This document shows, one piece after another, positions 4,528 through 62,482 of a DNA stretch of 64,000 nucleotides. Origin of the DNA: a virus (lineage: Duplodnaviria; Heunggongvirae; Uroviricota; Caudoviricetes); the IMG/VR virus record IMGVR_UViG_2737471993_000002. One strand, 5' to 3'. The notes beneath the pieces are model-generated. The model did no database searches and was not told the DNA's origin. It saw only the letters and a list, made by a program, of their open reading frames with translations. Made by a program: the position numbers and the translations under genes. The stretch's first letter is position 1. Every line of letters starts with the position of its first letter.

Positions 4528-7500
4528 ATGTGGTACAGGGAAGGTACTATCACATTTACACAGGGCAGCAATACTCTGGTTGGGGCAGGGACAGCCTGGA
4601 ACGTAACAGCTAATGGTGTGTTGCCGGGGATGATCGTCATTGGCCCCGACAATAAGCTGTATGAGATCAAGCGCGTAACCAGTGATACGAACATTGTTCT
4701 CTCAGAACCTTATACCGGCGAAACTCAGTCTGAAGTTCCGTGCCGAATCATTACGACCTATGAAGGCGACTTAACACAGTTTAGCGCGCGCTTTACAGCA
4801 CTAATGTCGCGTATGTCGGCTGATTCCAAGTCCATGCGCAGTTGGTTGACTGCTCTGGATGAGGTGACAATCGAGCGTGAAGACGGTACAGAAGTGACCG
4901 TTAAGCCGCTAATGCAGATCGTCAACGAGCACAACGAAAACGTTGAGTGGTATAAAAATAACACTGACGCGATTGATGCTGCTGGCGACAAAGCTCGTGA
5001 GGCGGCGGCCAGTGCTGCCGCAGCAGCAGAAAGCGCCAATACCGCTGGAGAAAAAGCCTCTCAAGCGTCTCAAAGTGCATCCGCTGCAGAGTCCTCAAAA
5101 AGCGCGGCGGCCACCAGTGCCGGTGCCGCGAAAACGTCTGAAACGAATGCTGCAGCGTCACAAAAATCTGCAGCCACTTCTGCATCCACCGCGACCACGA
5201 AGGCGTCAGAAGCTGCCACCTCAGCCCGGGATGCGGCGGCCTCAAAAGAGGCAGCGAAATCATCAGAAACGAGCGCAGCCTCGAGCGCCAGTAATGCCGC
5301 TTCCTCGGCAACGGCGGCAGGAAATTCCGCGAAGGCGGCAAAAACGTCCGAGACGAACGCCAGGTCTTCTGAAACGGCAGCGGGACAGAGCGCCTCGGCT
5401 GCGGCAGGCTCAAAAACAGCGGCTGCGTCGTCTGCCAGTGCCGCGTCAACAAGTGCCGGGCAGGCCTCAGCCAGTGCCACCGCCGCCGGAAAATCGGCAG
5501 AAAGTGCCGCATCGTCTGCTTCAACAGCCACAACGAAGGCTGGCGAAGCCACTGAACAGGCCAGCGCAGCAGCGAGGTCTGCTTCCGCAGCGAAGACATC
5601 CGAAACGAACGCGAAAGCGTCGGAAACCCGTGCAGAATCCTCAAAAACGGCAGCCGCATCGTCCGCCAGTTCGGCAGCGTCATCGGCATCATCTGCGTCT
5701 GCTTCAAAAGATGAGGCGACCAGACAGGCGTCAGCAGCGAAGGGCAGCGCCACGACGGCATCCACGAAAGCAACAGAGGCGGCAGGCAGTGCGACGGCAG
5801 CATCTCAGAGCAAAACTGCTGCTGAATCCGCTGCGACCCGTGCGGAAGCTGCTGCTGATCGTGCTGAAGAGATTGCCGGTGCAGTTGCGATGGAAGACGC
5901 AAGCCTTACAACTAAAGGTGTTGTGAAACTTAGCAGTGCTGTCGACAGCACCAGTGAATCGCTGGCCGCAACGCCAAAAGCAGTTAAAGTAGTCAATGAC
6001 AATGCGAACAGCAGGGTGCCATCTAACCGAAAAATTAACGGGAAAGCACTGACTGCGGATATCACATTAACGCCGAAAGATATTGGTACTTTAAATTCAA
6101 TAACGATGTCTTTCTCTGGCGGGGCCGGGTGGTTCAAACTGGCTACTGTTACAATGCCACAAGCGAGTTCCATCGTTTACATCGCATTGATTGGTGGCGC
6201 TGGTTACAACGTCGGCTCCCCACATCAGGCAGGCATTTCAGAACTGGTTCTACGAGCAGGCAATGGAAACCCCAAAGGGATTACAGGTGCTTTGTGGAAG
6301 CGTACAGCTGTCGGATTAACGAATTTCGCCTGGATCAACACATCCGGCGATACATATGATATTTACGTTGAGATTGGCAATTATGCGACTCGTGTAAATA
6401 TCCATTGGGATTGTACTGCAAATGCGACAGTTTCTATTTATACATCGCCAACATATTCAGCGAGTAAGCCTTCCAGCGTTACCGATGGTGTTGTTTATAC
6501 GATGTATAGCACACATCAGAAACCGACGCCGTTAGATATTGGAGCACTGCCAACAACCGGAGGAACAGTTTCAGGTCAGTTGTCTGTTACTGGTGGGATC
6601 ACCGGAACATTAAATGGTAATGCAAGTACAGCAACGAAATTGCAGACGGCAAGATCTATCGGTGGAGTTGGTTTCGACGGTTCTGCAAATATCAACCTTC
6701 CAGGTGTAAATACTACGGGTAATCAGAACACCACTGGTAATGCTGCAACTGCTACAAAACTTCAGACGGCAAGAACTATCGGCGGCGTGAGCTTTGATGG
6801 TACTGCGAATATTAATTTGCCAGGTGTTAATACGGCTGGTAATCAGAATACAACGGGCAACGCGGCTACTGCTACGAAGTTGCAGACTGCGCGTACTATC
6901 AATGGGGTGTCGTTTGACGGCTCGGCAAATATTTCCTTGTCGCCAGCAAATATAGGTTGCCCGGCATCTCCTACTGGTTGGTTAACTACAGGAAGTAATG
7001 GCGGAGCAATAACAACAGCACAGTTAGTGACGTTATTGCAAAATAATGGAGCATTTAACACAAAGTCATGGATTGCTCGATGTGCGTGGGCCTATGCCAA
7101 TAGTGCAACCATACCAAATAGTGAAACTGGTTGTGGCGTTATTCCATTGGCAGGAGCTGTTATAGAGGTATTTAATAACGGTAGTAGCTCAAACAATTAT
7201 ACGATCCGTATAACAACGGCCACAACGACGAGTGTCTCTGGTGCTCTCACTAATGCGGAGTTTATCTATGTATTTAATGGCACATATTATTCTCCGGGAT
7301 GGCGAAGAGTATATAACACGAAAAACAAACCAACAGCCTCTGATGTCGGTGCATTACCTCTTACCGGTGGTACATTATCTGGAGGTTTGACATCTTCTGG
7401 CGAGATCATTTCAAAATATGCAAATGGTTTCCGCATTGCTTACGGTAGCTTTGGGTTCTTTATCCGTAATGATGGATCGAACACATATTTCATGCTAACA

Positions 7501-8556
7501 GCATCAGGAGACACATTAGGTTCATGGAACGGTTTGCGACCAATTACAATTAATAATACCAGCGGTGCTGTATCAATTGGTAATGGACTAAATGTGACTG
7601 GTGGCGTAAATGGTAGTTTGAACGGTAATGCTTCAACAGCTACGAAGTTGCAAACAGCGAGAAACATCAATGGTGTTAAGTTTGATGGCTCAGGCGATAT
7701 CAACATTAATACATTGGTATCTCGTGGCCGAGTTACGGCGTTAAGCGGCTCTACTCAAGGCACTGCTGGCATTCAAATGTACGAGGCGTACAACAATAGC
7801 TACCCGACCACGTATGGCAACGTATTGCACATGAAAGGTGCGAGTGCTGCTGGTGAGGGCGAGTTGCTTATTGGCTGGAGTGGTACGAGCGGTGCACATG
7901 CGCCAGTTTTCATTCGCTCACGAAGAGATACCACAGATGCGGCATGGTCAGCGTGGGCGCAGGTATATACTGCTAAGGATTCAATCCCTGGTGTGAATAC
8001 AACCGGTAATCAGAATACTACTGGTAATGCCGCAACAGCCACAAAATTGCAGACAGCAAGGAAAATTGCTGGTGTGGCGTTTGATGGCTCTGCCGATATT
8101 ACTTTGACTGCGGCTAACCTTAATGCCTATACGAAAACAGAGGTAACAAACCTTCTAAGTTCCTATGTGAAGAGCAGTGCTCTTCCAAGTATGACTGTGC
8201 GAACTTCCTCTGTTTCAGGTGGGGATATGGGCATGAGTTTGTCCACATTCATTAGCCACCTAAAATCAAATGGGGCGTTTAGCAAAAGTTATTGGATTGG
8301 CTTTGGCGATGCTATGGGATTCAATGCTGGCAGTATCAACAATATAACGGGATTTGGTGCTGTAGAATTAGCAGAATCTATAATCGAAGTTTTTAATCTA
8401 CCTAACGGTGATTATACAATTCGTTTAACAACGTCACATAAAGCTGACTACGGTGGAGTTACAAACGCAATCCTCGTTTATCACTACCGTAGTAATAGAA
8501 GTCCGTCAGGTCAATGGCTGAAATTTGCAGGTACTGTTGGGGCAACAAGTAACTGA
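4528..8556 (+). CDS. Side tail fibre protein (Stf-like) with Ala/Ser-rich region and C-terminal fibre repeats
   Basis: ATG at 4528 preceded by AAGGAG. Long Ala/Ser/Thr low-complexity segment with KTSETNA-type motifs typical of lambdoid side tail fibres; five copies of GNASTATKLQTAR.I.GV.FDG.ANI..PGVNTTGNQNTTGNAATATKLQTAR. Confidence 0.7.
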   Translation: MWYREGTITFTQGSNTLVGAGTAWNVTANGVLPGMIVIGPDNKLYEIKRVTSDTNIVLSEPYTGETQSEVPCRIITTYEGDLTQFSARFTALMSRMSADSKSMRSWLTALDEVTIEREDGTEVTVKPLMQIVNEHNENVEWYKNNTDAIDAAGDKAREAAASAAAAAESANTAGEKASQASQSASAAESSKSAAATSAGAAKTSETNAAASQKSAATSASTATTKASEAATSARDAAASKEAAKSSETSAASSASNAASSATAAGNSAKAAKTSETNARSSETAAGQSASAAAGSKTAAASSASAASTSAGQASASATAAGKSAESAASSASTATTKAGEATEQASAAARSASAAKTSETNAKASETRAESSKTAAASSASSAASSASSASASKDEATRQASAAKGSATTASTKATEAAGSATAASQSKTAAESAATRAEAAADRAEEIAGAVAMEDASLTTKGVVKLSSAVDSTSESLAATPKAVKVVNDNANSRVPSNRKINGKALTADITLTPKDIGTLNSITMSFSGGAGWFKLATVTMPQASSIVYIALIGGAGYNVGSPHQAGISELVLRAGNGNPKGITGALWKRTAVGLTNFAWINTSGDTYDIYVEIGNYATRVNIHWDCTANATVSIYTSPTYSASKPSSVTDGVVYTMYSTHQKPTPLDIGALPTTGGTVSGQLSVTGGITGTLNGNASTATKLQTARSIGGVGFDGSANINLPGVNTTGNQNTTGNAATATKLQTARTIGGVSFDGTANINLPGVNTAGNQNTTGNAATATKLQTARTINGVSFDGSANISLSPANIGCPASPTGWLTTGSNGGAITTAQLVTLLQNNGAFNTKSWIARCAWAYANSATIPNSETGCGVIPLAGAVIEVFNNGSSSNNYTIRITTATTTSVSGALTNAEFIYVFNGTYYSPGWRRVYNTKNKPTASDVGALPLTGGTLSGGLTSSGEIISKYANGFRIAYGSFGFFIRNDGSNTYFMLTASGDTLGSWNGLRPITINNTSGAVSIGNGLNVTGGVNGSLNGNASTATKLQTARNINGVKFDGSGDININTLVSRGRVTALSGSTQGTAGIQMYEAYNNSYPTTYGNVLHMKGASAAGEGELLIGWSGTSGAHAPVFIRSRRDTTDAAWSAWAQVYTAKDSIPGVNTTGNQNTTGNAATATKLQTARKIAGVAFDGSADITLTAANLNAYTKTEVTNLLSSYVKSSALPSMTVRTSSVSGGDMGMSLSTFISHLKSNGAFSKSYWIGFGDAMGFNAGSINNITGFGAVELAESIIEVFNLPNGDYTIRLTTSHKADYGGVTNAILVYHYRSNRSPSGQWLKFAGTVGATSN

Positions 8557-11660: not shown

Positions 11661-11678
11661 GAAAACAAGTTGTTTCAG
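11661..11678. promoter_or_regulatory. AAACAAgtTGTTT palindrome upstream of parA-like gene
   Basis: Palindrome GAAAACAAGTTGTTTCAG; same half-site (AAACAAnTTGTTTAAA) recurs upstream of genes at 15447, 43155 and 54608. Confidence 0.4.
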
Positions 11679-11710: not shown

Positions 11711-12379
11711 ATGACCAAGATCTTTGTGGTTGGCGGCACAAAGGGCGGGCCTGGCAAATCCACCGTTGCCCAGCAAATTGCCGTTTGCCTGAAAGTCAAA
11801 AAGAAGAAGAAGGTTTATATTACCGATATAGATATTCAGCGCACGACAACGAGCTGGTGTGAAGACCGTCGACAGAACGAAGACCTTGAGCTGATTCCTT
11901 TTGCATACGTTCAGGATGACATCATTAAGCACCTAAAATCGCTTCAGGGTAGAGCTGAGTTTGTAGTGGTAGATGCTGGTGGCTTCGACTCCGAAATTCA
12001 GCGACAAGCGATGCTGATGGCTGACGTTATCATTATCCCGCTGCGTCCTAAGCGTCGTGATTTGAAATCTTTACGTGACATCGATCCTATTATCGACAAT
12101 GTTCGCAATGTAAACGATAAAGTGAAGGTCCGCGCGGTCATGAACCAGTGCCCGGCTTTGCCATCACAAGTGTCTCGCATTCTGGCGGCTAAAGAGATTG
12201 TTGAGACGTTTGGCATCGAGTCTGCGCCAGTCAATCTATATAACCGCAACGTCTATGATGATGCGGAAGAGTCTGGTCGTTCTATCTTTGAAATGACCGG
12301 TAGCGAGCGCGACAAAAAGGCGGAAGCCGAGTTTGAAGAATTTGTAGATTATCTGTTGAGTCTGGAGGAAGAAGAATAA
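11711..12379 (+). CDS. parA: ParA-like partition ATPase (small ParA/ParF type)
   Basis: Deviant Walker A GGTKGGPGKST near N-terminus; 222 aa; followed by overlapping small basic gene (TAATG). Confidence 0.7.
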   Translation: MTKIFVVGGTKGGPGKSTVAQQIAVCLKVKKKKKVYITDIDIQRTTTSWCEDRRQNEDLELIPFAYVQDDIIKHLKSLQGRAEFVVVDAGGFDSEIQRQAMLMADVIIIPLRPKRRDLKSLRDIDPIIDNVRNVNDKVKVRAVMNQCPALPSQVSRILAAKEIVETFGIESAPVNLYNRNVYDDAEESGRSIFEMTGSERDKKAEAEFEEFVDYLLSLEEEE

Positions 12380-12738
12380 TGTCCATGAAAATGGGTGACC
12401 TAGCAAAGCGCAAAGAGCCTGATGCACCGGCTAAGAACACAACTCCTTTGCGCCAACCAGTCAGACCACAGGGACGCCCGACTCGTGGCAAAGAGAAAAT
12501 TAAAAGCCGCACAATGTCACTGGAAGACGAATACTTCGAACTGCTGGAGATGATGAAGTTCATCCCTCGCTTCGAGAAGTTCACTCGTTCTGACGTGATT
12601 CGAGCAGCCATTTTCCATCTGGCAGAGAAGTCACCGCAGGAAATCGAGGACATCGTGAAGCTTAACGAGGCGATCACAGCTGCCGACGTTACGATGCGTA
12701 CCGATGAAATTAAACGAGAGTTGATGAAGAAAGGTTGA
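12379..12738 (+). CDS. Small basic DNA-binding partner of ParA (ParG/ParB-like, ribbon-helix-helix candidate)
   Basis: 119 aa, Lys/Arg-rich disordered N-terminus, C-terminal SDVIRAAIFHLAE-type RHH-like segment; translationally coupled to the ParA-like gene. Confidence 0.4.
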   Translation: MSMKMGDLAKRKEPDAPAKNTTPLRQPVRPQGRPTRGKEKIKSRTMSLEDEYFELLEMMKFIPRFEKFTRSDVIRAAIFHLAEKSPQEIEDIVKLNEAITAADVTMRTDEIKRELMKKG

Positions 12739-12789
12739 TTATATTGGGCGTTTGTTACGCCCAATATATGAATTAAAGGATTGATACTA

Positions 12790-14484
12790 ATGGAATCGAT
12801 AGAATCATTTCTAAAAAATTTTCTAGTTTCAGATCATCGGGTTGCCGTCATAAAAGGAGATTGGGGCGTTGGTAAAACTCATTATTGGAATAGTTTTTAT
12901 ACTAAGCATTCTGAAGGATTAGATTTTAATGCATATTCGTATGTTTCTTTGTTTGGGGTTAACTCTATTGGTGATATTAAAAAAGCTCTTTATCATTGTG
13001 CCACACCAATTAATGAAAAGAAATATAAAGAACTAATTTTATCTGAAACGGATCGAACTATGATTCGTTATAGAAATGGGTTTTTGGGATGGTTGAAATA
13101 CAACTCCTTGTCAAAATTTTTAATACATTTCGGAAAGAACGATTTTTTTGGGTTCAAAACAGATAACCTGCTGTCATCTCTTGAGTATAAATTTGTTAAT
13201 AATTATTTGGTTTGTATTGATGATGTTGAAAGAAAAGGTAATTCGCTAGAAGTTAAAGAAATTATGGGGGTAATTGATGAATTGGCAAGAAGAAAAGGCT
13301 GCAAAGTTGTTCTAATTTTAAATGAAGATAATTTACATGATGAAACTGCAAAAAAACAGTTTTTAGAGTACAGAGAAAAAGTAATTGATGTCGAAATAAA
13401 ATATGATCCTACGCCTGAGAAGAACTTACGTAAAGTTTTTTATGAAACTGATTCTGATTTTCTTTTGTTAAAAGTCTTAGCAAATGACTTAGGCATTAAA
13501 AATATCCGTATATTAAATAAAATAAAAACATCTCTGGTTAATCTTAGGAATGAGCTAAGCTTGGCAGAGGATAAGGTTAGAGAAAGTTTTATCAATAGAT
13601 TGGTTCTGTTTTCAGTGGTTTACTATTCTGGTGTTCCAGGTGTTGATTATGCCTTGTTTAAAGAATCAATTAAAAACATACATGTATTTGATTACATGTT
13701 AGATGATAAAAAGGATGATTCTGTATATTCATTTATTAATAGTCTTGATATTATTTATGAACGAGCGGAAATTGCTTTCGATGATGACATAGATTTTTAT
13801 CTCAAGAATGGTTATCTTTCTACTGAAAGCAATATTCGAGGTATAATAGAAGAAAAAAATAAACAATATAAAGAACACAAGGCTTTATGTGAGGTTAACA
13901 ATGTTTGGGATATTTTTAGTGACTCATTCAAGGACAATGAATCTGAGTTTATTTCTAAGATAAAATGTGTAATTAACGACAATCTTTCACACATACCTGT
14001 TGCTCACTTCATAGGCTTGATTGATATCTTAAATAGATTGGAGATTGATTGTGATAGTTATATAGAGGCATATGCAGATGCCTTTGTTAGCCAAGATGAT
14101 GCTTATACTGCTTTTCGGAATTTGTATGTAGAGATATTTGGTAACGAAAAGTTAGGTCTGCTAATTCAAAAAAAATTGATGGATAAGAAGCCTGAAGAGA
14201 CTAATTTAGAGAATGTTTTATACAAAATAATTGAAGGCAAATTTAATCATAGTGACATAGCATATCTTAACAGTTTCTCTGAAGATGATTATTTAAAGTG
14301 GATATTATCCCGCAATCAGGATGCTTTGGATTTAGTGAGAAAGGGGTTGCTCAGATTCAAAAGTATGCAAGAACTAACAGAAGAACAGCAAAAAATCACG
14401 AATAAAGCAATAGGTGCATTAACGAAACTGGCCTCTAGATCAAGTCTTAACAAACTACGTGTGAGCAGATTGCTTAATAATTAA
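12790..14484 (+). CDS. KAP-family P-loop NTPase (accessory gene, candidate defence function)
   Basis: ATG at 12790 with AAAGGA 9 nt upstream (track start 12781 is TTG). Walker A GDWGVGKTHYW (GxWGxGKT hallmark of KAP NTPases) at aa ~24-34, Walker B-like LVCIDDVE. Very AT-rich relative to neighbours. Confidence 0.55.
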   Translation: MESIESFLKNFLVSDHRVAVIKGDWGVGKTHYWNSFYTKHSEGLDFNAYSYVSLFGVNSIGDIKKALYHCATPINEKKYKELILSETDRTMIRYRNGFLGWLKYNSLSKFLIHFGKNDFFGFKTDNLLSSLEYKFVNNYLVCIDDVERKGNSLEVKEIMGVIDELARRKGCKVVLILNEDNLHDETAKKQFLEYREKVIDVEIKYDPTPEKNLRKVFYETDSDFLLLKVLANDLGIKNIRILNKIKTSLVNLRNELSLAEDKVRESFINRLVLFSVVYYSGVPGVDYALFKESIKNIHVFDYMLDDKKDDSVYSFINSLDIIYERAEIAFDDDIDFYLKNGYLSTESNIRGIIEEKNKQYKEHKALCEVNNVWDIFSDSFKDNESEFISKIKCVINDNLSHIPVAHFIGLIDILNRLEIDCDSYIEAYADAFVSQDDAYTAFRNLYVEIFGNEKLGLLIQKKLMDKKPEETNLENVLYKIIEGKFNHSDIAYLNSFSEDDYLKWILSRNQDALDLVRKGLLRFKSMQELTEEQQKITNKAIGALTKLASRSSLNKLRVSRLLNN

Positions 14485-14494
14485 GTATTCATGA

Positions 14495-14545
14495 CCTGTT
14501 TCTGTATATAAATAATAAGTAACTTATTAAATATACGGAAGCAGG
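14495..14545. repeat. Copy A of duplicated long hairpin module (CCTGYTTCTGTATAT...ATATACGGAAGCAGG)
   Basis: 15-bp inverted arms around an AT-rich loop, directly after stop of the KAP NTPase gene; near-identical element at 62321-62385; downstream ~40 nt later a shared CCA(C/-)NAGAAC..CTCCCTTCC block. Confidence 0.6.
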
Positions 14546-14662
14546 TCTTTCAAAAGATACCCACCAGAACAACTCCCTTCCGTTTCCACTTCCAAAAACT
14601 GCCACCAATCGCTATCATCAGCTCATTGTGATAAGTAAGTAACTACCTACCAGGTGAGCCAC

Positions 14663-15403
14663 ATGAGCCAAATCTTTTTCGACACCATCGACAACGACCA
14701 GTACGACTTCATGACAGAGTGGAATACCGCTGTTATGGATAAGTGGGTTGCTGAAAACATTGGTTTGTCGCGCTGCAAAGACGAGGCTGAACTCTTCGAT
14801 ACGAAGTGGTTTGATTACCGCGACATGCATCCTCTTATGGCCACCTGTCTGTTTACGGAGGCATACAAACGTCAGTACTCAAATATCATGCTGACGCACG
14901 GTCGCGAACACTTTGAAACAGCTCCGTTCACCACCGGGTTAAAACGCCTGCCTTATCAGGAGTTGTCGACTGCCAATAAAACGTCGCTATGGAAAGCACG
15001 CCAGTTTGCTGACCGCTATTGCTGCTCATACGACTACTTTATCTCCACCGTTCTTTCCGCAGCTGCACGACGTCTGTGGGACAAGCTGCCTCGCCCACAG
15101 CATTTGTGGCAGCCAGAACTGATTGAGATATTTGAAGAGAAATTAGCCAGACGCGCAACAACCCGTCTGGATGACTCTCTGGTTAGCTTTAAGCATATAG
15201 GAGACATGCAGTTCAACCCGATCCAGGAAAGCTATTTTGAGTGGATTCTGGAGCGTTTACGCACCATCCCCCGCAGCAAGCGCATACGCGCAATTTTCTC
15301 CGCTATCTGGCTAATGGAAATCGTTCCAGAGCGCCTTATTTCCGCCCACTTTCCAGAAGAACTGGAAGAAGCACGGCGGTTTATTGATCCCCTATCTAAT
15401 TAA
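14663..15403 (+). CDS. Hypothetical protein
   Basis: ATG at 14663 with AGGTGA upstream (track start 14654 is GTG); 246 aa; immediately upstream of helicase gene. Confidence 0.5.
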   Translation: MSQIFFDTIDNDQYDFMTEWNTAVMDKWVAENIGLSRCKDEAELFDTKWFDYRDMHPLMATCLFTEAYKRQYSNIMLTHGREHFETAPFTTGLKRLPYQELSTANKTSLWKARQFADRYCCSYDYFISTVLSAAARRLWDKLPRPQHLWQPELIEIFEEKLARRATTRLDDSLVSFKHIGDMQFNPIQESYFEWILERLRTIPRSKRIRAIFSAIWLMEIVPERLISAHFPEELEEARRFIDPLSN

Positions 15404-15411
15404 CTAATACT

Positions 15412-15432
15412 AGAAAACAATTTGTTTAAAAA
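15412..15432. promoter_or_regulatory. AAACAATTTGTTTAAA palindrome upstream of helicase gene
   Basis: AGAAAACAATTTGTTTAAAAAAC; member of the recurring AAACAAnTTGTTT motif family. Confidence 0.4.
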
Positions 15433-15446
15433 ACAAAGGAAAGCAC

Positions 15447-16787
15447 ATGACCGAACTTTGCCATACAGGACGCGGGCTGTCCGAAGAGTTTGATGAAGAT
15501 TTCCAGAACAGACTGACGGCATATTTTTGTCGTGATCACGAGTTTCTTACTCGTGCGGGAGATCTGGTTGTGCCTAGCCAATTTGCCAATGCGGCCAATG
15601 CCATATTGGTTAATATGGTTTCGGGCTATTACCGTATGTACAAGAGCGCGCCCTCTTCATCTGCAATTCTGGATATGCTTAAGCGTGCGAAACGCGATAA
15701 GACTATCCGTGAGGAACTATTCGCCGATGTTGTTGCTGCGTTTAAGCGCATCCTTGCAGAAAAATTGTCCGATACCTCGTACATGGTTGACCAGGTATCA
15801 ACCTTCGCAAAAAGCGTAGCGTTTGATGATGCTCTGATTAAGGCTGCTGAACTGAAAGAGAAAGGCGACTTTCAGGGGGCGATGGCAATCATGGCCAAGG
15901 TTCAGCAGATTGGATCGAACGAAGCGACCGGAATCTATGACTACTACACCTCCGCAAGTGAGCGATTGAAAGCGCGTGAATATGAGGCTTCAGAGGAGTA
16001 TGTACCAAACAGTATTACAACAGGACTCCCTCTTCTCGATAGGTTGCTGTACCAAAAAGGCTGGGCAAAGCGCGAAATGGTGCTTTTCATGGGGTTCGCT
16101 AAATCCGGTAAATCGACCGCAATGGGTGAGTTTTCCATAAACGCAACGCTTGCTGGCTACAATGTTCTGTATCTCTCGCTGGAGGTTCACACCAACATTT
16201 TGTCCGACCGCTTTGATGCAAGATTGTCGGAGACGGAAATGTCCAAGCTGGTGGAACGGCGCGATGAAGTTCATCGTAAGTTGGCAGAGTTGGGAGCCAC
16301 TAAGGGGATTGGTAGTTTGTGGGTTGTTGAGCGTCCGTCAGGAAGTATGTCACCGGCAGATCTGGACCGTATGCTTAACAGCATGAAAGCCAATGGCATG
16401 GTGCCTGACATGCTTGTTGTCGACTACGCAGATTTGATGCGTGCCAGTTATGACCTTCGTGATGATCGCGCCAACATTCGTAGTATCTACACCGATTTAC
16501 GTGCTCTTTATGACAAACACAACGTTGCTGGTATCACAGCATCGCAAACAAACCGTGAAGGTGGCGCGTCAGAAGTTGCCACAATGATGCACGCTGCCGA
16601 CAACATCGAAAAAGTACGTATTGCTGACCTGGTAATAACGATCAACAAAACCGAAGAAGAAGAAGCGAAAGGAGAGGCTCGTCTCTACTTTGCTGGTTCG
16701 CGTAACCAGCAGGGAGGGATCAGCATTCGCGTTAAACAAAACCTCGAACAAATGCGCTTCATTGAGCGAATCTTAGACGTTACCTAA
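15447..16787 (+). CDS. Replicative DNA helicase (DnaB-like)
   Basis: Walker A GFAKSGKST, DnaB-type C-terminal RecA-fold motifs (LYLSLEV, VVDYADLM, ITASQTNRE); 446 aa. Confidence 0.8.
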   Translation: MTELCHTGRGLSEEFDEDFQNRLTAYFCRDHEFLTRAGDLVVPSQFANAANAILVNMVSGYYRMYKSAPSSSAILDMLKRAKRDKTIREELFADVVAAFKRILAEKLSDTSYMVDQVSTFAKSVAFDDALIKAAELKEKGDFQGAMAIMAKVQQIGSNEATGIYDYYTSASERLKAREYEASEEYVPNSITTGLPLLDRLLYQKGWAKREMVLFMGFAKSGKSTAMGEFSINATLAGYNVLYLSLEVHTNILSDRFDARLSETEMSKLVERRDEVHRKLAELGATKGIGSLWVVERPSGSMSPADLDRMLNSMKANGMVPDMLVVDYADLMRASYDLRDDRANIRSIYTDLRALYDKHNVAGITASQTNREGGASEVATMMHAADNIEKVRIADLVITINKTEEEEAKGEARLYFAGSRNQQGGISIRVKQNLEQMRFIERILDVT

Positions 16788-23439: not shown

Positions 23440-24187
23440 CTTTTATGTATAAGATGACTTTGTTTTCGTTGAGACGCGACTGTTTGAACTTAAATACAAG
23501 TGCAAACGAAGAAGTCTATCTGGCAGTAGCCTAATAAGCCAAACACCAGCGAGGTCAGTTTCCAGCCTCGTTACCGAAATGGGACACACTGAGCGAGTGT
23601 GATTGCAGAACGCAGGAGGGAACATGAGTGTTCCCTCCGATGAAGTAACAGAATGGGCGGTCGGTATATTTTCAACTCCATATGACTCCCGGATTCTTAG
23701 CCTCTGACCGCCCATCCTGTTACGTCATTTTGTTCAATTATGTCGTTTATACTGGGTTAAAAAGCGGCGACGTAGCCCGGCTGGTATGGTTAGCCAGCAC
23801 ACAACGTTGAGGCCATTACATTTTTATCAATTCTAAGGTTCTATTCACAGAGATACCGGCGAGCGTTGATATGTAACATGTTGGGCAAACATTCAATCGG
23901 AGTAGTGGCCTCAACGTTGTGAAGACAGGATTGTTGTGTAGGTTTAACCACTGTTGCCATTGGTGCCTGTTTTCACAACAAATGATTCCATACATCACAT
24001 TGTATAAATTACAAAGTAGGTGCTGTCCTCAGAAACATCATCTACTTAAAGATTTTGCCTTCTACTATTGAGCGAAGTCGAAAGCGTCTGGCACTAACGA
24101 AAAGTGCAAGTAGCGGTGCGTTTCCTGGCAGAAACTAAACCGTCGCGATTGGCACTGTTGAGTAATAAATACTGGCAGTGCCGAATT

Positions 24188-24262
24188 GATGGTGTAGCTC
24201 AGCGGTAGAGCAGTTGGCTGTTAACCAACTGGTCGGTGGTTCGAATCCACCCACCATCGCCA
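24188..24262 (+). tRNA. tRNA-Asn (anticodon GTT)
   Basis: Acceptor stem GATGGTG/CACCATC, anticodon loop CTGTTAA, T-arm GGTGG-TTCGAAT-CCACC, discriminator G and encoded CCA. Confidence 0.8.
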
Positions 24263-24267
24263 ATTTA

Positions 24268-24354
24268 GGGGAGTTAGTCCGTAGAGGTAGCGGTGTAGAC
24301 TGTAAATCTACTGTCATTGCGACTCGGGTGGTTCGACTCCATCACTCCCCACCA
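24268..24354 (+). tRNA. tRNA-Tyr (anticodon GTA), long variable arm
   Basis: Acceptor GGGGAGT/ACTCCCC, anticodon loop CTGTAAA, long variable arm, T-loop GGTTCGACTCC, encoded CCA. Confidence 0.75.
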
Positions 24355-24358
24355 AATT

Positions 24359-24434
24359 GCCGGTTTAGCTCAGTTGGTAGAGCGCCTGCCTTGTAAGCAG
24401 GATGTCAGCGGTTCGAGTCCGTTAACCGGCACCA
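24359..24434 (+). tRNA. tRNA-Thr (anticodon TGT)
   Basis: Acceptor GCCGGTT/AACCGGC, D-arm GCTCAGTTGGTAGAGC, anticodon loop CTTGTAA, T-loop GGTTCGAGTCC, encoded CCA. Confidence 0.8.
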
Positions 24435-24747: not shown

Positions 24748-24825
24748 CACAGCGTTGAGCGGTTTGGCCTTTTAATCAACCAGATTAAGACTCCGCTAAC
24801 ATAAACCAGACCGCTCAACGCTGTG
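24748..24825. repeat. Long inverted repeat immediately 3' of tRNA-Ser
   Basis: 20-bp arms CACAGCGTTGAGCGGTTTGG / CCAGACCGCTCAACGCTGTG around a ~38-nt loop; arm sequence is related to the inverted repeat at 23798-23921. Confidence 0.6.
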
Positions 24826-28823: not shown

Positions 28824-28921
28824 CCCCTCTTCTCCCTGCGCGAATGGCTTAGTTCCCTGTTCGCGCAGTGCTACATTAAACACACTAGTAAATAATTTGT
28901 TTTCATAACAAAGGATTAGCC

Positions 28922-36090: not shown

Positions 36091-36363
36091 AAAGAATTAT
36101 GGCGCTTGTTGAGGAAGTCACTCCTCTTACGCACTTTGTTTTGCCATGCCGGCAGTTAGCTTCTGCCTTTGACTATTCATGCGGCAACCCCGCATTTCGC
36201 CACAATGGGCAATTCACTTTTATGGAATAAACTGGCCGTTGTGTCGATTTAATTAGCATGGCCTTACCATGCTAATTTATTCAACTTGTACAATCCTACA
36301 AATCTATCCACTCAGGCTTACACCGTCTTCGTTATTGTAGAAATGAGGATCATCAGCGTTGAA

Positions 36364-36579
36364 TCAGCTTAGAGCAACGACATTTGCTGCTGCTGGGCCT
36401 TTAGCCCCATTCTCGATAGAGAATTCGACCTGCTGGCCTTCTTCCAAAGTGCGGAAATTATTACTCTGAATTGCCGAAAAATGTACAAAAACATCTTTAC
36501 TGCCATCAGCAGGAGAAATAAAGCCAAAGCCTTTATCAGAGTTAAACCATTTTACTAAACCAGTCATTTTATTAGACAT
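36364..36579 (-). CDS. Cold-shock protein (CspA family)
   Basis: Start at internal Met ([23 protein letters not shown]..); RNP1/RNP2 motifs KGFGFI and VFVHF; 71 aa; ~270-bp upstream noncoding leader. Confidence 0.85.
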
Positions 36580-36908
36580 AGATATTACCTTCTTAATTTT
36601 GTGAGCCACATAGTGCGGCGAGAATTTGATCTGTATAGATTGGGACTTACTTAGGCACTTAAGGAGGAGACTCACGAAGAAGGGAAATCAGAAGATAACA
36701 CTGAACTGAGACTGCTTTACTAAAACTGCTTACATAAGGTCTGTCTTGCAAACCAACGATGCTATTAACGCATACCCCTTCTTTTCATGCAACCTTTATT
36801 TTTCAAAGATAACTAATTTTTGTCACCATTGGTTTAGTAAACGTTAACGAACCAGACGATGCCAGACACCTTTACAGAGAACAGATGCCCGCCAATTGGC
36901 GGGCATCA

Positions 36909-43105: not shown

Positions 43106-43154
43106 TCGCAATTATCTTATTAAGAAAACAATTTGTTTAAAAGGATAAGAAAAC

Positions 43155-44674: not shown

Positions 44675-44721
44675 ATGCAAACTGACTGCGGCACGTTCCG
44701 CAGTCATATTTCATAGTCGTC

Positions 44722-45254
44722 ACCGCTGACAGCATACACAATCAACTACCGCTGATAGCATATCGAGAGTCTATCTCACCGCTCACAGCATACTTTACTC
44801 GATTTTTTACCGCTGACAGCATACTTAAGACATTGCATGAATAATGTGTACCGGTATGGGTATAACCAGAACAAAATTACCGCTGGCAGCATACGAAGGT
44901 CTGACATATACCATTAATTACCGCTGATAGCATATCCAAACAAAAATTCCTCAATAAAACACCGCTGACAGCATACGTTCTATCAGGGAGCAGCAGGCAA
45001 TAAATGCCTTTCACTACAAGCAATCAGCGCAATAGCAATAGAATGTTAGTGAGCGCAAACCTATATGGAATGCACTCTTCGAGGTTAGTAACCACTGGGG
45101 AGGTATGACAGAGCATTGAGTGGTGATAGATGATTTACCGCCCACAGCATACGTTCATCTCACTATACCGCTGGTAGCATATATTTAACCGTTTACAGCA
45201 TACTTTTCAGAAAAATAGCCGCTGATAGCATACATTTCACCGCTGACAGCATAT
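44722..45254. repeat. Iteron array (12 copies of ~16-bp ACCGCTGACAGCATAC) downstream of repA
   Basis: Copies at ~44722, 44748, 44778, 44809, 44879, 44920, 44961, then 45137, 45167, 45188, 45218, 45239; minor variants (GATAGCATAT, CACAGCATAC). Two clusters separated by ~160 bp. Confidence 0.85.
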
Positions 45255-46348
45255 CAAAGCAGTTTGAGACTATTGGAAAGGATCTCAATCATCTTGATAT
45301 TTTCAGGCGTCAAATTCTGCGAAAGTTCGGTTATCTTGTTGATAATGTTCTGTTTGGCATCAATTTCCCCAGCTTTCTCATCTAGTTTTTTGGGTTCGAT
45401 GTCTTCAGGTTTTGGCGGTGCGACTTTGAGTTTTGGATTGCGGCTGTGAATCTGGATATAGATCGACCGCCCTCGCTTAATCTCGCTGTATTCGAGATAA
45501 CCCAAATCTTGGAGAGCTTTTAAGCCGTTGCGTATAGTCTGATTCTGCGAGCTGACATTCCTGCTACTCAAATTGAGTCGCGCACGCAATCGAGCAAGCG
45601 ATACCGGCGCAGGCTTGGTTGGAAGACTTTCGATGAAGGTGTACAGAGCCTGTGCTGTTTCTTTGCGTGGTAGCTTATTGATAACCTTTAACTGCAAAAG
45701 AACCTTATGGTCAAAGCGATATAGTTCGGCCAGCTTCGGTTCTGCATAGAACACCACCGTATCTTTCTGCTCGTTGTAGTCCACGCTATTGATGAGGTGC
45801 ACCATCAGAAGCGAGATCTTGTTAGAGCCGTCGACGTTCTTTTCTTCATACGTTCTCTGGAAAGACAGAGTTGTACGCATGATCTTCAAAAGACTGTTTG
45901 TAAGCCGGTCGCGGAGTGTTTTGCGGATCTGTGACGATGGATAGCCACAAAACTTCGCAAATTTCGTGATGCTTAACTCGACACGACCGTTAGGTTCGCC
46001 GTATTCTGCCAGCGAACGCACAACGCCCACCCACGTTTTGAAATCATGATCCATGTCGAGACGAGGACCGGTTATCTTGATATCGGAATAGCCTTCAGAA
46101 CGGGCTACTTCGAGCTGAACAAGCTCCTTTGAAGCATCGATCTCATTTGGCTTGTTACGCTTGCTGTATTTTGTCCCCTTGAGCGTGGGCACGAACAATC
46201 CCAGCCGCATCAACGCAATTGGTTGGACTGTATTGTTGCTATTAGGGACAAGTTCCCCTGTGTACAATTCAAGGGAACCTTCTTCAAAGTTGTCGAGATT
46301 ATCTTCTACTTCTTTGTTATTTTTACCTTTTTTATTTTTTGTGGACAT
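45254..46348 (-). CDS. repA: Plasmid replication initiator RepA (RepFIB / P1 RepA-like)
   Basis: Start at internal ATG 46348 with AAGGTG SD (the longer track ORF would run through the upstream iterons). Motifs NTVQPIALMRLGLFVPTLK, ITGPRLDMDHDFKTWVG, QALYTFIESLP, PVSLARLRARLNL recalled as RepFIB-type signatures. Confidence 0.85.
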   Translation of the reverse strand: MSTKNKKGKNNKEVEDNLDNFEEGSLELYTGELVPNSNNTVQPIALMRLGLFVPTLKGTKYSKRNKPNEIDASKELVQLEVARSEGYSDIKITGPRLDMDHDFKTWVGVVRSLAEYGEPNGRVELSITKFAKFCGYPSSQIRKTLRDRLTNSLLKIMRTTLSFQRTYEEKNVDGSNKISLLMVHLINSVDYNEQKDTVVFYAEPKLAELYRFDHKVLLQLKVINKLPRKETAQALYTFIESLPTKPAPVSLARLRARLNLSSRNVSSQNQTIRNGLKALQDLGYLEYSEIKRGRSIYIQIHSRNPKLKVAPPKPEDIEPKKLDEKAGEIDAKQNIINKITELSQNLTPENIKMIEILSNSLKLL

Positions 46349-46368
46349 GTGGACACCTTTGTCATTCA

Positions 46369-46470
46369 ACCGCTGACAGCATACTTGATTTGCCGCTGAC
46401 AGAATACCAAAAACAGTTGGCAGCATACGGTGAACCGCTGACAGACTATCAATTACCGCTGACAGCATAC
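46369..46470. repeat. Iteron array upstream of repA (origin-side, ~5 copies)
   Basis: ACCGCTGACAGCATAC-type repeats at ~46369, 46392, 46417 (partial), 46434, 46455. Confidence 0.8.
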
Positions 46471-54501: not shown

Positions 54502-54607
54502 CATATGGTGGGGGATATCCCCACCTTCTCTTTGATTTGTAAGCCTTGTTTAAACACATAAGATAACAACTTGTTTAAACGCACCAAAAAAGAAAAAGGA
54601 AAAACAC

Positions 54608-56697: not shown

Positions 56698-56836
56698 TTG
56701 TAGGTAGTTATCTATCTATGTATATTGTGTTGGCGCGTTAAATTCCTGAAACAACTATTCGTTTTTGGTGGCCTATGGCCACCATTTTTTTATCTATCTG
56801 GCCTTGTTCTCTCAATAAATGTAAACTCACGTAATG

Positions 56837-60556: not shown

Positions 60557-60595
60557 AAAGCCTACTTTAAAAAGTTTAAAGTAGGCTTTCTTTTA
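60557..60595. terminator. Bidirectional hairpin terminator
   Basis: AGCCTACTTTA-n7-TAAAGTAGGCT with A-run before and T-run after. Confidence 0.65.
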
Positions 60596-61560: not shown

Positions 61561-61645
61561 GTGCTGGGTAAGCCAATCACATACCCAGCACCACAAAAAC
61601 GCGCCAGAGAGCTTCTCGTTTGCATTTCTGGCGCGTTTTATTTGA
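61561..61645. terminator. Two consecutive hairpins after the 60711 gene
   Basis: GTGCTGGGTA...TACCCAGCAC (61561-61591) and AAAACGCGCCAGA-n19-TCTGGCGCGTTTT followed by T-rich tract (61598-61645). Confidence 0.55.
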
Positions 61646-61671: not shown

Positions 61672-61694
61672 AATAGGTATTTACTTACCTATCG
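61672..61694. promoter_or_regulatory. Palindromic operator-like motif (AATAGGTATTTACTTACCTATCG)
   Basis: ATAGGTA..TACCTAT arms, 10 nt upstream of methyltransferase start. Confidence 0.45.
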
Positions 61695-61703
61695 AGAAAG
61701 AAG

Positions 61704-62297
61704 ATGATTGCAGCCGAAAAAATCAAACAGCGAAAGCGCGACAACTCTCTTCGTGACCTCTGGAGAACACCTGACTGGCTGTTTTCTGCCATTCAACGTT
61801 ATCTTGGAGTGACATTTGATGTTGACGTTGCCTGCAACAAGGACAATGCAAAGCTGCCTAATTTCATAGGCGTTGAGCGTGATGCTTTGAAATCTGAATG
61901 GGGACAGCCAGGTACAATTGCCTTCCTCAATCCACCCTACTCCAAAATCTCCCCCTGGATTGATGCGGCTATACGTGAGCAGGCTCGCGGAGTTACAACA
62001 GTGATGCTAATTCCTCAATCCCTAGATACAAAGTGGTATGAGCGTGCAACAGAGTGTGCGAATGAGACGATTATTCTGTCTGGTGGCCGCGTAGCGTTTG
62101 TCGAGCCTGACGTCAATCTGGGTCAGGTAGAAGTAAACATCAACCCAGGTGGCAGTATGCTCGTTGTTTTTCGAGGATTCTGTCAGGACGCTGGGCACTC
62201 TATAAGCAAGATCCCTTTGGACGTCATGAAAAGTCTGGGAGGGTATGATCCTGCGAATGTGATCAGGAAAAAAAGACCATCAAAGAAGGCTGCTTAG
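61704..62297 (+). CDS. DNA N6-adenine methyltransferase (phage Dam-like)
   Basis: RTPDWLFSAIQRYLGVTFDVDVA and catalytic FLNPPYS motif; 197 aa. Confidence 0.75.
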   Translation: MIAAEKIKQRKRDNSLRDLWRTPDWLFSAIQRYLGVTFDVDVACNKDNAKLPNFIGVERDALKSEWGQPGTIAFLNPPYSKISPWIDAAIREQARGVTTVMLIPQSLDTKWYERATECANETIILSGGRVAFVEPDVNLGQVEVNINPGGSMLVVFRGFCQDAGHSISKIPLDVMKSLGGYDPANVIRKKRPSKKAA

Positions 62298-62320
62298 TTT
62301 GTTCTGGCGTCTGTAATTAG

Positions 62321-62385
62321 CCTGCTTCTGTATATATAAATAACTACATATTAATTATTAATATACGGAAGCAGGCTGTTTTGTA
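62321..62385. repeat. Copy B of duplicated long hairpin module
   Basis: CCTGCTTCTGTATAT...ATATACGGAAGCAGG directly after methyltransferase stop; 3' arm identical to copy A, 5' arm differs by one base that converts a G-U wobble into a Watson-Crick pair. Confidence 0.6.
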
Positions 62386-62482
62386 TCAGAGACTCCAGAC
62401 CTGAACATCACTACAGAATCCACTAGAACCCCTTCCCAGACGCTTTAAAATCGATTTTATGAACCACTTTAAGGAAACCAAC

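Follow-up and report, generated by a model that had tools for sequence, protein, structure and literature searches.

Genomic setting of the hairpins

The window, by which we mean the whole stretch of 64,000 nucleotides that was analyzed, comes from an SSU5-like phage-plasmid and is 99% identical to Escherichia phage CMS-2020a. It holds two members, hairpins A and B, of a family of three near-identical palindromes found in SSU5-type phage-plasmids, the third, hairpin C, lying outside the window. Each hairpin stands 10-35 nt 3' of the stop codon that closes a large block of co-directional genes, and the following block opens with its first gene about 105-120 nt downstream, the 3' arm being separated from the next start codon by 117, 107, and 116 nt at the three sites of this genome. 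The three sites cut the genome of about 109 kb into structural/lysis/partition, replication, and accessory/regulatory blocks. Hairpin A has the parA-parB operon and a cargo slot upstream, with a 246-aa gene, DnaB, and primase downstream; hairpin B lies 3' of a Dam gene, and hairpin C follows an 88-aa ORF, just 5' of the small terminase gene terS.

The features at and around hairpin A are as follows:

11711-12738: parA-parB operon
12781-14484, + strand: KAP-family NTPase gene, cargo in the variable slot between parA-parB and hairpin A
14495-14545, + strand: hairpin A, 15-nt arms around a 21-nt AT-rich center
14495-14509, + strand: 5' arm of hairpin A, CCTGTTTCTGTATAT, 10 nt past the TAA that ends the KAP NTPase ORF
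14510-14530, + strand: center of hairpin A, holding the inner palindrome AATAAGT-A-ACTTATT (14514-14528)
14531-14545, + strand: 3' arm of hairpin A, ATATACGGAAGCAGG
14546-14551, + strand: T-rich tail TCTTTC, directly 3' of hairpin A (TCTTTT in most relatives)
14546-14630, + strand: leader after hairpin A, unstructured, C 35% and G 9%
14561-14581, + strand: conserved block CCACCAGAACAACTCCCTTCC in leader A, with a CCAGA motif at 14564-14568
14631-14650, + strand: operator-like palindrome ATAAGTA-AGTAAC-TACCTAC, 12 nt 5' of the ATG at 14663

With the flanking A and T included, hairpin A has a 17-bp lower stem and a 7-bp upper stem. The leader that follows shows no stable fold (z = +0.59), and its C minus G value of 0.30 is the highest of any 80-nt stretch in the window, a composition that resembles a Rho-utilization (rut) site. 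The palindrome at 14631-14650 belongs to a dispersed family of 7-6-7 motifs, with 20 matches against 0.53 expected, and the hairpin center itself carries an operator-like site (mean 2.2 mismatches vs 5.3 in shuffles), which is missing from the relatives L135 and L162, whose arms persist.

Hairpin B has a comparable layout:

61599-61636: canonical terminator-like hairpin 5' of the Dam gene
61673-61692: operator-like site 5' of the Dam gene
61704-62297, + strand: Dam-type N6-adenine methyltransferase gene, with hairpin B at its 3' end
62303-62307, + strand: TCTGG motif (within GTTCTGG), 14 nt 5' of hairpin B, left half of an outer inverted repeat
62321-62375, + strand: hairpin B, 15-nt arms and a 25-nt AT-rich center, the stem extending to 62318-62378
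62321-62335, + strand: 5' arm of hairpin B, CCTGCTTCTGTATAT, 23 nt past the TAG that ends the Dam methyltransferase ORF
62361-62375, + strand: 3' arm of hairpin B, ATATACGGAAGCAGG
62376-62458, + strand: leader after hairpin B, beginning with the T-rich tail CTGTTTTG, C 29% and G 13%
62395-62399 and 62436-62440, + strand: CCAGA motifs in leader B
62420-62436, + strand: block CCACTAGAACCCCTTCC in leader B

The C minus G value of leader B lies at the 99th percentile of the window, and the T-rich tails of both A and B keep their composition among relatives while their sequence varies.

Distribution

The three sites are fixed, each relative examined having exactly A, B, and C, and the IMG/VR matches fall into these three classes only. 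Hairpin A has orthologues in all 83 protein-anchored relatives and hairpin B in 37 IMG/VR matches, and SSU5 and p88COLEC-2 each contain exactly three copies; the count in p88COLEC-2 led us to set aside the extra copies suggested by the 4-6 "places" reported for some E. coli plasmids. Among 5426 complete E. coli genomes, the element occurs in 260 (about 5%), at a median of 3 places per genome, and 861 of the 863 places are plasmid-borne rather than chromosomal, on which ground REP/ERIC-type palindromes and MITEs were rejected. A GTDB scan found the element confined to SSU5-like replicons, its other matches being chance palindromes. Palindromes in unrelated bacteria, about 30 in number, were likewise dismissed as chance or unrelated matches of the search pattern, as was a perfect palindrome with CCTGTTTCTGTAT arms in another phage (L148, L176, L178).

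At its gathering thresholds Rfam returned nothing at the hairpins, and below them only generic long-hairpin (miRNA-precursor) matches. In the literature on SSU5, pHCM2, and phage-plasmids, we found no paper on these hairpins, on genome ends, or on regulation. SSU5-type elements, common among the Enterobacteriaceae, also occur in Salmonella, in Klebsiella, and as pMT1 in Yersinia pestis, and they carry resistance and defense cargo.

Comparison of hairpins A and B

A sequence-only reading of this DNA had described a duplicated module of about 100 bp, one copy after the KAP NTPase gene and one after the methyltransferase gene. Both look-alike hairpins are indeed present at 14495-14545 and 62321-62375, their 3' arms are identical, and their 5' arms differ, as claimed, at a single place, position 5, where T in A and C in B give U.G and C-G, respectively, on the + strand; a further U.G, at stem position 9, is common to both. 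The resemblance of the arms exceeds chance, since a search for the arm pattern with up to 3 mismatches found 5 occurrences against 1.19 expected, a number that none of 100 shuffles reached. Near-identity over some 100 bp was overstated: the loops measure 21 vs 25 nt, the spacers 15 vs 44 nt, and the downstream blocks differ. The block placed about 40 nt after hairpin A in fact starts 15 nt after it, whereas its counterpart lies 44 nt after hairpin B with a 4-nt deletion and one mismatch relative to the A block, and a gapless pattern search recovered the A copy only. A MAFFT alignment of the two 210-nt regions left the hairpins out of register, so A and B were compared by hand and by script. 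The predicted RNA folds reach -28.7 kcal/mol for A and -27.8 kcal/mol for B, with z-scores of -8.6 and -8.1.

The same reading took the T/C difference for a compensatory change and the G-U/G-C alternation for a signature of selection on secondary structure rather than on primary sequence. The change is one-sided, not two-sided, and the one-base difference between A and B is not evidence of compensatory evolution. Among 47 distinct relatives, 96.7% of stem cells pair, and the covariation score of 0.115 is not significant, equaling that of the shuffles (0.112), 177 of 500 of which score as high. The most variable pair occurs as UG in 23, CG in 11, UA in 8, and CA in 5 sequences, where about 4.5 CA would be expected if the arms varied independently; the pair states thus fit independent variation, and the non-pairing C.A state is not avoided. 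In the same way, the T/C and G/A sites toggle independently, and the position-5 polymorphism toggles even among plasmids whose neighboring gene is 98% identical. Two-sided changes are rare, being represented by pair 8, which goes from C-G to U-A in Klebsiella-type B copies, and by the closing pair and flank pairs of the C copies. The arms, in turn, are 92-93% identical where the adjoining gene is 78-81% identical, with variable loops, and this strong conservation of primary sequence contradicts the second half of the claim. What stands is a real family of structured, conserved hairpins, present at site A in every protein-anchored relative; the argument from G-U and G-C does not.

Conserved geometry of the arms and flanks

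Taking 13-nt arm cores as the units for matching arms, the sequence between them varies continuously in length from 25 to 31 nt, which argues against a rigid dimer on both arms of B-form DNA and favors a folded form. The palindrome occurs in both orientations at the same site, at A in L003 and L011 and at B in L173, L204, and L129. Further out lies a symmetric pair of outer repeats, TCTGG at -18 to -21 and CCAGA at +14 to +20. TCTGG occurs 18-21 nt 5' of the point where the hairpin starts in all 16 B flanks, in 8 of the 10 C flanks, and in 12 of the 26 flank families of A. Flanks pair beyond what shuffles do (mean z = -2.6 for B and -3.0 for C), extending the dyad to about 130 nt. An outer TCTGG/CCAGA helix is visible in single-sequence folds, but RNAalifold fails to find it and the window shows no enrichment of CCCAGAC, so a conserved RNA stem was dropped as a claim and the helix retained as an observation only.

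In a distant clade, the 5' arms have decayed and the hairpins fold no better than shuffles, yet an AT-rich stretch and the 3'-arm motif, (A/G)GAGCCAGGC, are kept at exactly three sites on the gene strand, the motif having changed alike at all three. The distance from the motif to the next start codon is 116, 139, and 102 nt there. Terminator-like hairpins can be seen by eye beside the motif, although the terminator scan calls none, and they are given no weight as evidence here.

Terminator-like features

Hairpins A and B are stem-loops on the transcribed strand just 3' of a gene, and at A the fold is strand-asymmetric: of 39 distinct sequences, 33 fold more stably as + strand RNA (mean difference 3.55 kcal/mol), and the + strand has 49 G.U vs 11 A.C cells. 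Hairpin B shows no strand preference, 10 of 16 sequences folding more stably on the - strand. Tail scores average -3.72 for A and -3.13 for B (-4.53 once its stem is extended), compared with -2.11 +/- 0.59 for the window background, while hairpin C, at -2.70, has a poor U-tract and is followed about 80 nt later, before terS, by a canonical GC-rich terminator. A consensus terminator scan made no call at A, B, or C; such a simple scan misses A and B because the loop is longer than 8 nt, the centers measuring 21-31 nt vs the 3-8 nt loop of a compact terminator, and the inner 7-bp helix with a 3-nt apical loop exists in A and C only. A terminator scan of the whole window proved too permissive, with 473 candidates, and only a few clear cases were taken from it. 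Elsewhere in this genome, ordinary terminators are unrelated in sequence, so termination alone does not explain the invariant arms of the three sites.

Competing explanations

Several other readings would each account for part of these observations. It is unlikely, though the reading carries some weight, that the 5' arm does no more than supply the previous block with a terminator, while the AT-rich center and 3' arm provide the next block with a regulated promoter or transcription start region, controlled by the factor that would bind the 7-6-7 operators. Such an arrangement would resemble the T4-type PeSL (promoter-early stem-loop) cassettes, which are described as composite promoter-terminator motifs (PMC4122927, PMC2839356). 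It would fit the distant clade, whose 5' arms decayed while the AT-rich stretch and 3'-arm motif changed in concert, as well as the operator-like center, the similar distance from 3' arm to start codon at every site, and the attenuator-like terminator in leader C, which implies a promoter upstream. Against it, A, B, and C have no detectable sigma-70-like promoter on the + strand, the retrieved records of SSU5 and its relatives have no phage RNA polymerase or sigma factor annotated, and L135 and L162, which keep their arms, lack the operator-like site. A dedicated phage-plasmid factor, or RNase III, may instead act on the folded hairpin, as RNA or extruded DNA, and switch read-through between blocks as the plasmid state is left; the factor could be a hairpin-binding antiterminator, a repressor, or a processing protein. 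Arms that stay invariant among the three paralogous sites and from genus to genus, with loops that drift, the concerted 3'-arm change, a helix of about 24 bp in total with an internal loop, which is the size of an RNase III substrate, and the dyad of about 130 nt at B and C all suit this idea. We nevertheless consider it quite unlikely, given that no candidate factor was found, that the loops, the usual determinants in boxB-type sites, are not conserved, and that the palindrome occurs in both orientations at the same site. Sites read as duplex DNA, either dispersed centromeres of ParA and a 119-aa ribbon-helix-helix ParB or a repressor roadblock centered on the operator-like motif, appear improbable. 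In empty-slot relatives, hairpin A begins 30 nt past the parB stop codon and thus lies directly 3' of parA-parB; the ParB proteins of the window and SSU5 share 98% identity, in line with the invariant arms; and symmetric outer repeats, independently assorting T/C and G/A toggles, as for two half-sites, and an operator-like center would all be in keeping with duplex recognition. The continuous 25-31 bp variation in arm spacing, however, does not keep helical phase, ParB of the distant clade retains KSRTMS-EDE, its putative DNA-reading strand, although the arms there have changed, a different palindrome, AAACAAGTTGTTT, occupies the usual place of type Ib centromeres upstream of parA, and the + strand asymmetry of fold and tail at A would be left unexplained.

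Recombination or cassette exchange (PeSL- or attC-like), with cargo swapped beside A, has its best case at that site. Homology with Cyrano, PhiR41_1, and SSU5 begins at the 5' edge of hairpin A, breaks in homology fall at or within about 30 nt of this edge, at least 26 different families of upstream flank abut it, two KAP alleles whose upstream flanks are only 73% identical both end about 10 nt from the hairpin, and in pRHB30-C05_4 a 72-aa cargo gene in slot A has its own B-like 3' element. As the main role it is nonetheless very improbable: in every relative the flanks of B and C are conserved to either side, each genome has just three copies, with none to the left of the cargo, reading the sequence reveals no integron core sites, and a conserved sequence beside a variable slot is expected as an endpoint of homologous recombination even with no dedicated function. 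Tyrosine recombinases are annotated elsewhere on SSU5-type plasmids. The faintest prospect is a packaging role, in which hairpin C would be part of a cos- or pac-like terminase site and A and B its paralogous relics. Hairpin C is immediately 5' of terS, two direct repeats, AAACAAGTTG(G/T)TT, come after it, and the linear SSU5 RefSeq record is cut within its loop; draft contigs, however, break inside hairpin A too (L008, L022), as expected of an assembler at a repeated palindrome, and cuts at all three sites would yield pieces of 30-48 kb from a genome of about 109 kb.

A number of known elements were also dropped. Reading the sequence against integron attC, the arms CCTG.../...CAGG and the outer repeats GTTCTGG / CCAGAAC misfit RYYYAAC / GTTRRRY, and there is a single slot with no array. 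Lambda-type nut/boxB was rejected on variable loops and conserved arms, no N-like gene or upstream promoter having been found; a LexA box, because on reading its halves, CTGTATAT and ATATACAG, are split by the center; and a sigma-54 promoter, because on reading the -12 element is absent. Sites of the dif/cer and Ter types were considered by reading the sequence and dropped.

Discussion

From the anatomy of the hairpins, their three fixed positions, their conservation, the strand asymmetry at A, and the composition of tails and leaders, we infer that they most likely stop transcription between gene blocks. The fuller account that we favor, at a little short of an even chance, is that they are boundary terminators or insulators, clade-specific in SSU5-type phage-plasmids, with an added sequence-specific role. 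The + strand transcript would fold its palindrome of about 55 nt into a long hairpin, GC-clamped at the base and AU-rich in its upper stem. The combination of hairpin, U-rich tail, and C-rich, G-poor leader at A and B would then block read-through or reduce it strongly, acting intrinsically or backed up by Rho, leaving the upstream mRNA with a stable 3' hairpin. Plasmid-state genes (partition, cargo/defense, methyltransferase) would thereby be insulated from the replication and virion blocks. The invariant arms, the operator-like center, and the concerted 3'-arm change in the distant clade indicate a further sequence-specific function, for which a factor binding site or a promoter or start region of the next block would be candidates.

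With the intrinsic terminators of enterobacteria and their phages, the hairpins share a stable structure after the stop codon, a GC-rich base, and, at A and B, T-rich tails. Unlike them, they have a much longer helix (17 + 7 bp) around a 21-31-nt AT-rich center, arms that are near-invariant at three sites and across genera, where ordinary terminators of the same genome are unrelated to one another, a copy, C, that lacks a good U-tract, and a C-rich, rut-like leader after A and B. The early mRNA of T7 contains RNase III processing hairpins between genes, which are not known to be palindromes with long AT-rich centers. Those hairpins are similarly paralogous and intergenic, share sequence, comprise about two helical turns with an internal loop, and lie on the mRNA strand between functional gene groups; here, by contrast, the 3' half persists without its partner in the distant clade. 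The phage-plasmid N15 has four dispersed centromeres, which, like the stoperators that cluster A mycobacteriophages carry, are duplex sites of only 13-16 bp with known binding proteins. They are alike in being few to many copies of one conserved site, scattered along a phage genome in short intergenic gaps and tied to plasmid maintenance or to a lysogenic block of transcription, and unlike in that the present element is a dyad of 55-130 nt with variable arm spacing.

The PeSLs of T4-type phages have a consensus sigma-70 early promoter as their defining feature (PMC2839356), and they are numerous, clustered in hyperplastic regions, and flank ORFans on both sides (PMC2839356, PMC4122927). The likeness lies in a conserved composite intergenic motif of about 100 bp with a terminator-type stem-loop (PMC2839356, PMC4122927), which marks exchange points of unrelated genes and is proposed to prevent transcription from spilling into neighboring modules. 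The SSU5-type element differs in lacking a detectable + strand sigma-70 promoter in all three hairpins and in its exactly three copies at fixed core positions, only one of them beside a variable slot.

A bolder extension, to which we give a small but real chance, is a genome-partitioning switch, in which a phage-plasmid factor, at each of the three borders, would read the invariant arms or the 3'-arm motif in RNA or in extruded DNA, so that transcription would stop there in the plasmid state and the next block would be turned on in the lytic state, with site A doubling as the fixed anchor of a defense-cargo hotspot. A conserved boundary element with three sites would offer testable handles on how the lytic blocks are silenced while plasmid and cargo genes are expressed, and on where cargo is exchanged. 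Should the hairpins be only a terminator family, they would still provide an annotation landmark in SSU5-type phage-plasmids and a marker of the cargo slot.

Boundary hairpins of an SSU5-type phage-plasmid

Region 13000-16000 of the window is 99.2% identical to Escherichia phage CMS-2020a (CP054387.1), and roughly half of it has counterparts in Cyrano, PhiR41_1, and Salmonella phage SSU5; because of these matches, we assign the window by sequence to the SSU5-type phage-plasmids. Nearly all genes lie on the + strand. Two look-alike palindromes lie close behind stop codons: hairpin A begins 10 nt past that of a KAP-family NTPase ORF, and hairpin B 23 nt past that of a Dam-type methyltransferase ORF.

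14495-14509, + strand: hairpin A 5' arm, CCTGTTTCTGTATAT
between the A arms, + strand: hairpin A centre, 21 nt, AT-rich
14531-14545, + strand: hairpin A 3' arm, ATATACGGAAGCAGG
62321-62335, + strand: hairpin B 5' arm, CCTGCTTCTGTATAT
between the B arms, + strand: hairpin B centre, 25 nt
62361-62375, + strand: hairpin B 3' arm, ATATACGGAAGCAGG

The sequence-only reading had described a near-identical module with identical 3' arms and 5' arms that part at a single base. The arms bear this out, the 5' arms being unlike at position 5, but the loops differ and the downstream block, with a 4-nt gap between its versions, starts 15 nt past A and 44 nt past B; a plain pairwise alignment of the two regions, proposed there as a check, leaves the hairpins out of register. 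The shared module comes down mainly to the two arms. The resemblance is real and beyond chance, the arm with up to three mismatches occurring five times against 1.19 expected in a pattern count, and RNA folding, also proposed there, found both + strand hairpins stable, at -28.7 kcal/mol (z = -8.6) for A and -27.8 kcal/mol (z = -8.1) for B.

A third copy, hairpin C, lies in the CMS-2020a sequence beyond the window, between an 88-aa ORF and the small terminase gene (terS), 116 nt short of the latter, and has the same centre as A. On the annotated SSU5 map, from which site positions were read, C stands ahead of terS and the packaging, head, tail, and lysis genes, while A separates the parA-parB partition operon from the replication genes (246-aa protein, DnaB helicase, primase, ligase, polymerase, and nucleotide metabolism). 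B lies 3' of Dam, at the end of the replication block, and is followed by about 50 small genes, mostly regulatory or unknown. Given these positions and the inter-hairpin spacings in CMS-2020a of about 31, 48, and 30.5 kb, every hairpin stands at the end of one co-directional block and ahead of the following one. Between the 3' arm and the start codon that comes after it there are 102-139 nt, a similar distance at all sites.

Copy number and distribution

Among relatives gathered through the 246-aa protein encoded downstream of A, with the hairpin not used as a criterion, 83 of 83 carry it at the same place. Save for a handful of unrelated palindromes, matches from a pattern scan of IMG/VR fall into the A, B, and C flank classes, and both SSU5 and plasmid p88COLEC-2 hold exactly three copies. 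The element is present in 260 of 5426 complete E. coli genomes, at a median of three places per genome, with 861 of 863 places on plasmids. In a scan of one genome per bacterial species, the element came up only on SSU5-like replicons, those of Kluyvera, Buttiauxella, and Yersinia pestis; about 30 further palindromes were chance matches. An Rfam search gave no family for the hairpins, and a literature search found no paper mentioning them.

An unrelated phage (L148 910-958, L176 886-934, L178 8183-8231; L-numbers denote loci or records collected for comparison) has a perfect 20-bp-stem palindrome in which the arm's first 13 nt (CCTGTTTCTGTAT) recur; TTTATT and, after it, TTGACA come next. We rejected the palindrome as a family member, since it is probably an ordinary terminator-promoter junction that matches by chance.

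Conservation without covariation

The arms are nearly invariant, even where the centres are unrelated (L135, L162): at a neighbour-gene identity of 78-81%, they are 92-93% identical, and the centre and the leader (the stretch 3' of the hairpin) 72-77%. Positions 5 and 9 toggle between T and C in the 5' arm and between G and A in the 3' arm, even among plasmids with a 98% identical neighbour gene. Across 47 distinct sequences, 96.7% of cells pair, and the covariation score is at shuffle level (0.115 vs 0.112; 177 of 500 shuffles as high). The states of pair 9 (UG 23, CG 11, UA 8, CA 5) fit independently varying arms. Therefore, the contrast of G-U in one hairpin with G-C in the other, taken in the sequence-only reading as a compensatory signature, is a common one-sided polymorphism; of its structural argument, a hairpin family with structure holds and the compensatory change falls away. 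Real two-sided changes are present but few: at pair 8, Klebsiella-type B copies have U-A instead of C-G and three A copies show the U.G intermediate, and in C copies the closing pair and flank pairs are altered on both sides. The whole palindrome is reversed in some copies of A (L003, L011) and B (L173, L204, L129).

Signs of a role at the transcript level

In 33 of 39 distinct A sequences, RNA of the + strand folds more stably than that of the - strand, the mean difference being 3.55 kcal/mol; the count for C is 9 of 13, and B is without strand preference in fold stability. Arm haplotypes on the + strand comprise 49 G.U vs 11 A.C cells, which do not count as separate events. All lineages have a T-rich tail after A, of varying sequence (TCTTTTAAAAG, TCTTTTTCTATG, TTTTTTAAAG, and others), and mean tail scores are -3.72 for A, -3.13 for B (-4.53 with the stem extended), and -2.70 for C, the window background being -2.11 +/- 0.59. 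C-over-G skew reaches its maximum for the window in the 80 nt that follow A (C 35%, G 9%), which show no fold; the B leader ranks at the 99th percentile, and the C leader has no such skew. Rho-utilisation sites are C-rich and G-poor in composition. A simple terminator scan called none of A, B, and C because their centres exceed its loop limit. Ordinary GC-rich terminator-like hairpins of unrelated sequence, and a canonical one in the leader between C and terS, are as follows.

56766-56784, 60559-60587, and 61599-61636: GC-rich terminator-like hairpins
L004 17637-17658, - strand: canonical GC-rich terminator before terS

Terminators ahead of terS suggest that the late genes may be under antitermination control. 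Reading the sequence of an Acinetobacter relative (L210 30385-30435) revealed a similar hairpin and T-run before terS.

Sequence-specific features beyond the hairpin

Several features, among them the similar spacing to the following start codon given above, go beyond what termination by itself would account for. The element extends past the hairpin: most copies have TCTGG 18-21 nt upstream and CCAGA 14-20 nt downstream. The B and C flanks pair mutually better than shuffled flanks (mean z -2.6 and -3.0). RNAalifold did not recover an outer helix. The centres contain a site similar to a dispersed 20-bp palindrome, ATA(A/G)GTA-N6-TAC(C/T)TAT (mean 2.2 mismatches; shuffles 5.3), which has 20 matches in the window vs 0.53 expected, mostly 10-30 nt before + strand start codons, and the set resembles one of operators or promoters under a global phage regulator. 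Another recurring palindrome, AAACAA(G/T)TTGTTT, is found 5' of parA and of the DnaB helicase gene, among other places.

4465, 8677, 14631, 18669, 19898, 23420, 26342, 31065, 38457, 41977, 43930, 47437, 52121, 56700, 56834, 61673, 63889: dispersed palindrome, pattern matches in the window
11663-11676, 15412-15442, 28887-28917, 43123-43153, 54545-54594: AAACAA(G/T)TTGTTT palindrome in the window
L004 17660-17700, - strand: two direct copies of AAACAA(G/T)TTGTTT between C and terS

A distant clade is represented by two Klebsiella plasmids with 52-54% identity in the 246-aa protein. Their 5' arms are decayed, the folds do no better than shuffles, and an AT-rich stretch is followed by (A/G)GAGCCAGGC in place of GGAAGCAGG. 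Each genome has exactly three such motifs, all of them on the gene strand and at the same three sites; their persistence in altered form therefore points to a sequence-specific role of the 3' half, which has changed in concert. In the more distant Acinetobacter relative, the element is absent, and operator-type palindromes and the GC-rich terminator before terS are retained. A comparable dispersed palindrome, TTAGTAAGC-GCTTACTAA, was observed there.

A cargo hotspot upstream of hairpin A

Homology with Cyrano, PhiR41_1, and SSU5 starts at the 5' edge of hairpin A. Between parB and A lie a KAP NTPase gene in the window, a DUF2971 gene in SSU5, another gene in Cyrano, and a reverse-strand gene in PhiR41_1 and in many E. 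coli plasmids. With at least 26 unrelated flank families upstream of A, the slot between parA-parB and A (within 11711-14484) is a cargo hotspot (loci L001-L084); in relatives where it is empty, 30 nt separate the parB stop from the hairpin. The flanks of B and C are conserved in all relatives. In plasmid pRHB30-C05_4, a distant relative (L253 29740-29790, - strand), the slot holds a 72-aa gene followed by a B-type 3' element of its own, and the degenerate A hairpin comes after both, a hint that cargo genes can bring such elements along.

The gene after parA (12379-12738) encodes a 119-aa protein, annotated as RelE/ParE in Cyrano, which from its sequence we read as a ribbon-helix-helix ParB-type protein; a Pfam search gave no match. 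The window and SSU5 (SSU5_034) versions share 98% identity, a higher value than the 91% of ParA.

Elsewhere in the window, at least 11 copies of a ~20-bp repeat with a ACCGCTGACAGCATAC core form two clusters at 44718-46470 and by their look are probably replication-origin iterons. A full-length Rfam match to the cspA thermoregulator (36339-36757, - strand; 185.7 bits, E = 2.4e-49) indicates that the phage-plasmid has a predicted cold-shock-protein gene, regulatory 5' UTR included. A cluster of three tRNA genes (24188-24431) is bracketed by two related 20-nt inverted-repeat pairs, CACA(A/G)CGTTGAG..., at 23800-23921 and 24748-24825, and coding repeats with a period of 120 nt lie at 6580-8117 (4-5 copies, 63-78% identity).

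What the hairpins may do

The best-supported reading, which we hold tentatively and at somewhat under even chances, is a boundary terminator or insulator that ends each gene block and has an extra sequence-specific role. Its most attractive extension would be a composite terminator-promoter, in which the centre and 3' arm start or regulate the next block, like the PeSL cassettes of T4-type phages, described as composite promoter-terminator motifs that also serve as points of gene exchange (PMC2839356, PMC4122927); however, a sigma-70 promoter is not detectable in these hairpins, which differ from PeSLs in copy number and context and fall outside that class. A dedicated factor that recognises the folded hairpin is a weaker candidate, as is a recombination site. 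So is a duplex-DNA site, serving as a roadblock or as a centromere, the latter being at odds with an arm spacing of 25-31 bp without phase, with a predicted DNA-reading strand of ParB that is unaltered in the clade with changed arms, and with the different palindrome found upstream of parA.

A packaging site, likewise weaker, has as its sole hint the linear SSU5 record, which is cut inside the hairpin C loop.

NC_018843.1 103263-103299 joined to 1-18 (L258, L205): hairpin C, its loop broken by the ends of the linear record

The break could be a physical genome end beside terS or could have arisen in assembly at a palindrome that recurs in the genome; the second is probable because draft contigs likewise break inside hairpin A. 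The three boundary hairpins are an undescribed, clade-specific triplet in a widespread phage-plasmid group. Their most likely function is to terminate or insulate transcription, on top of which comes a sequence-specific layer.
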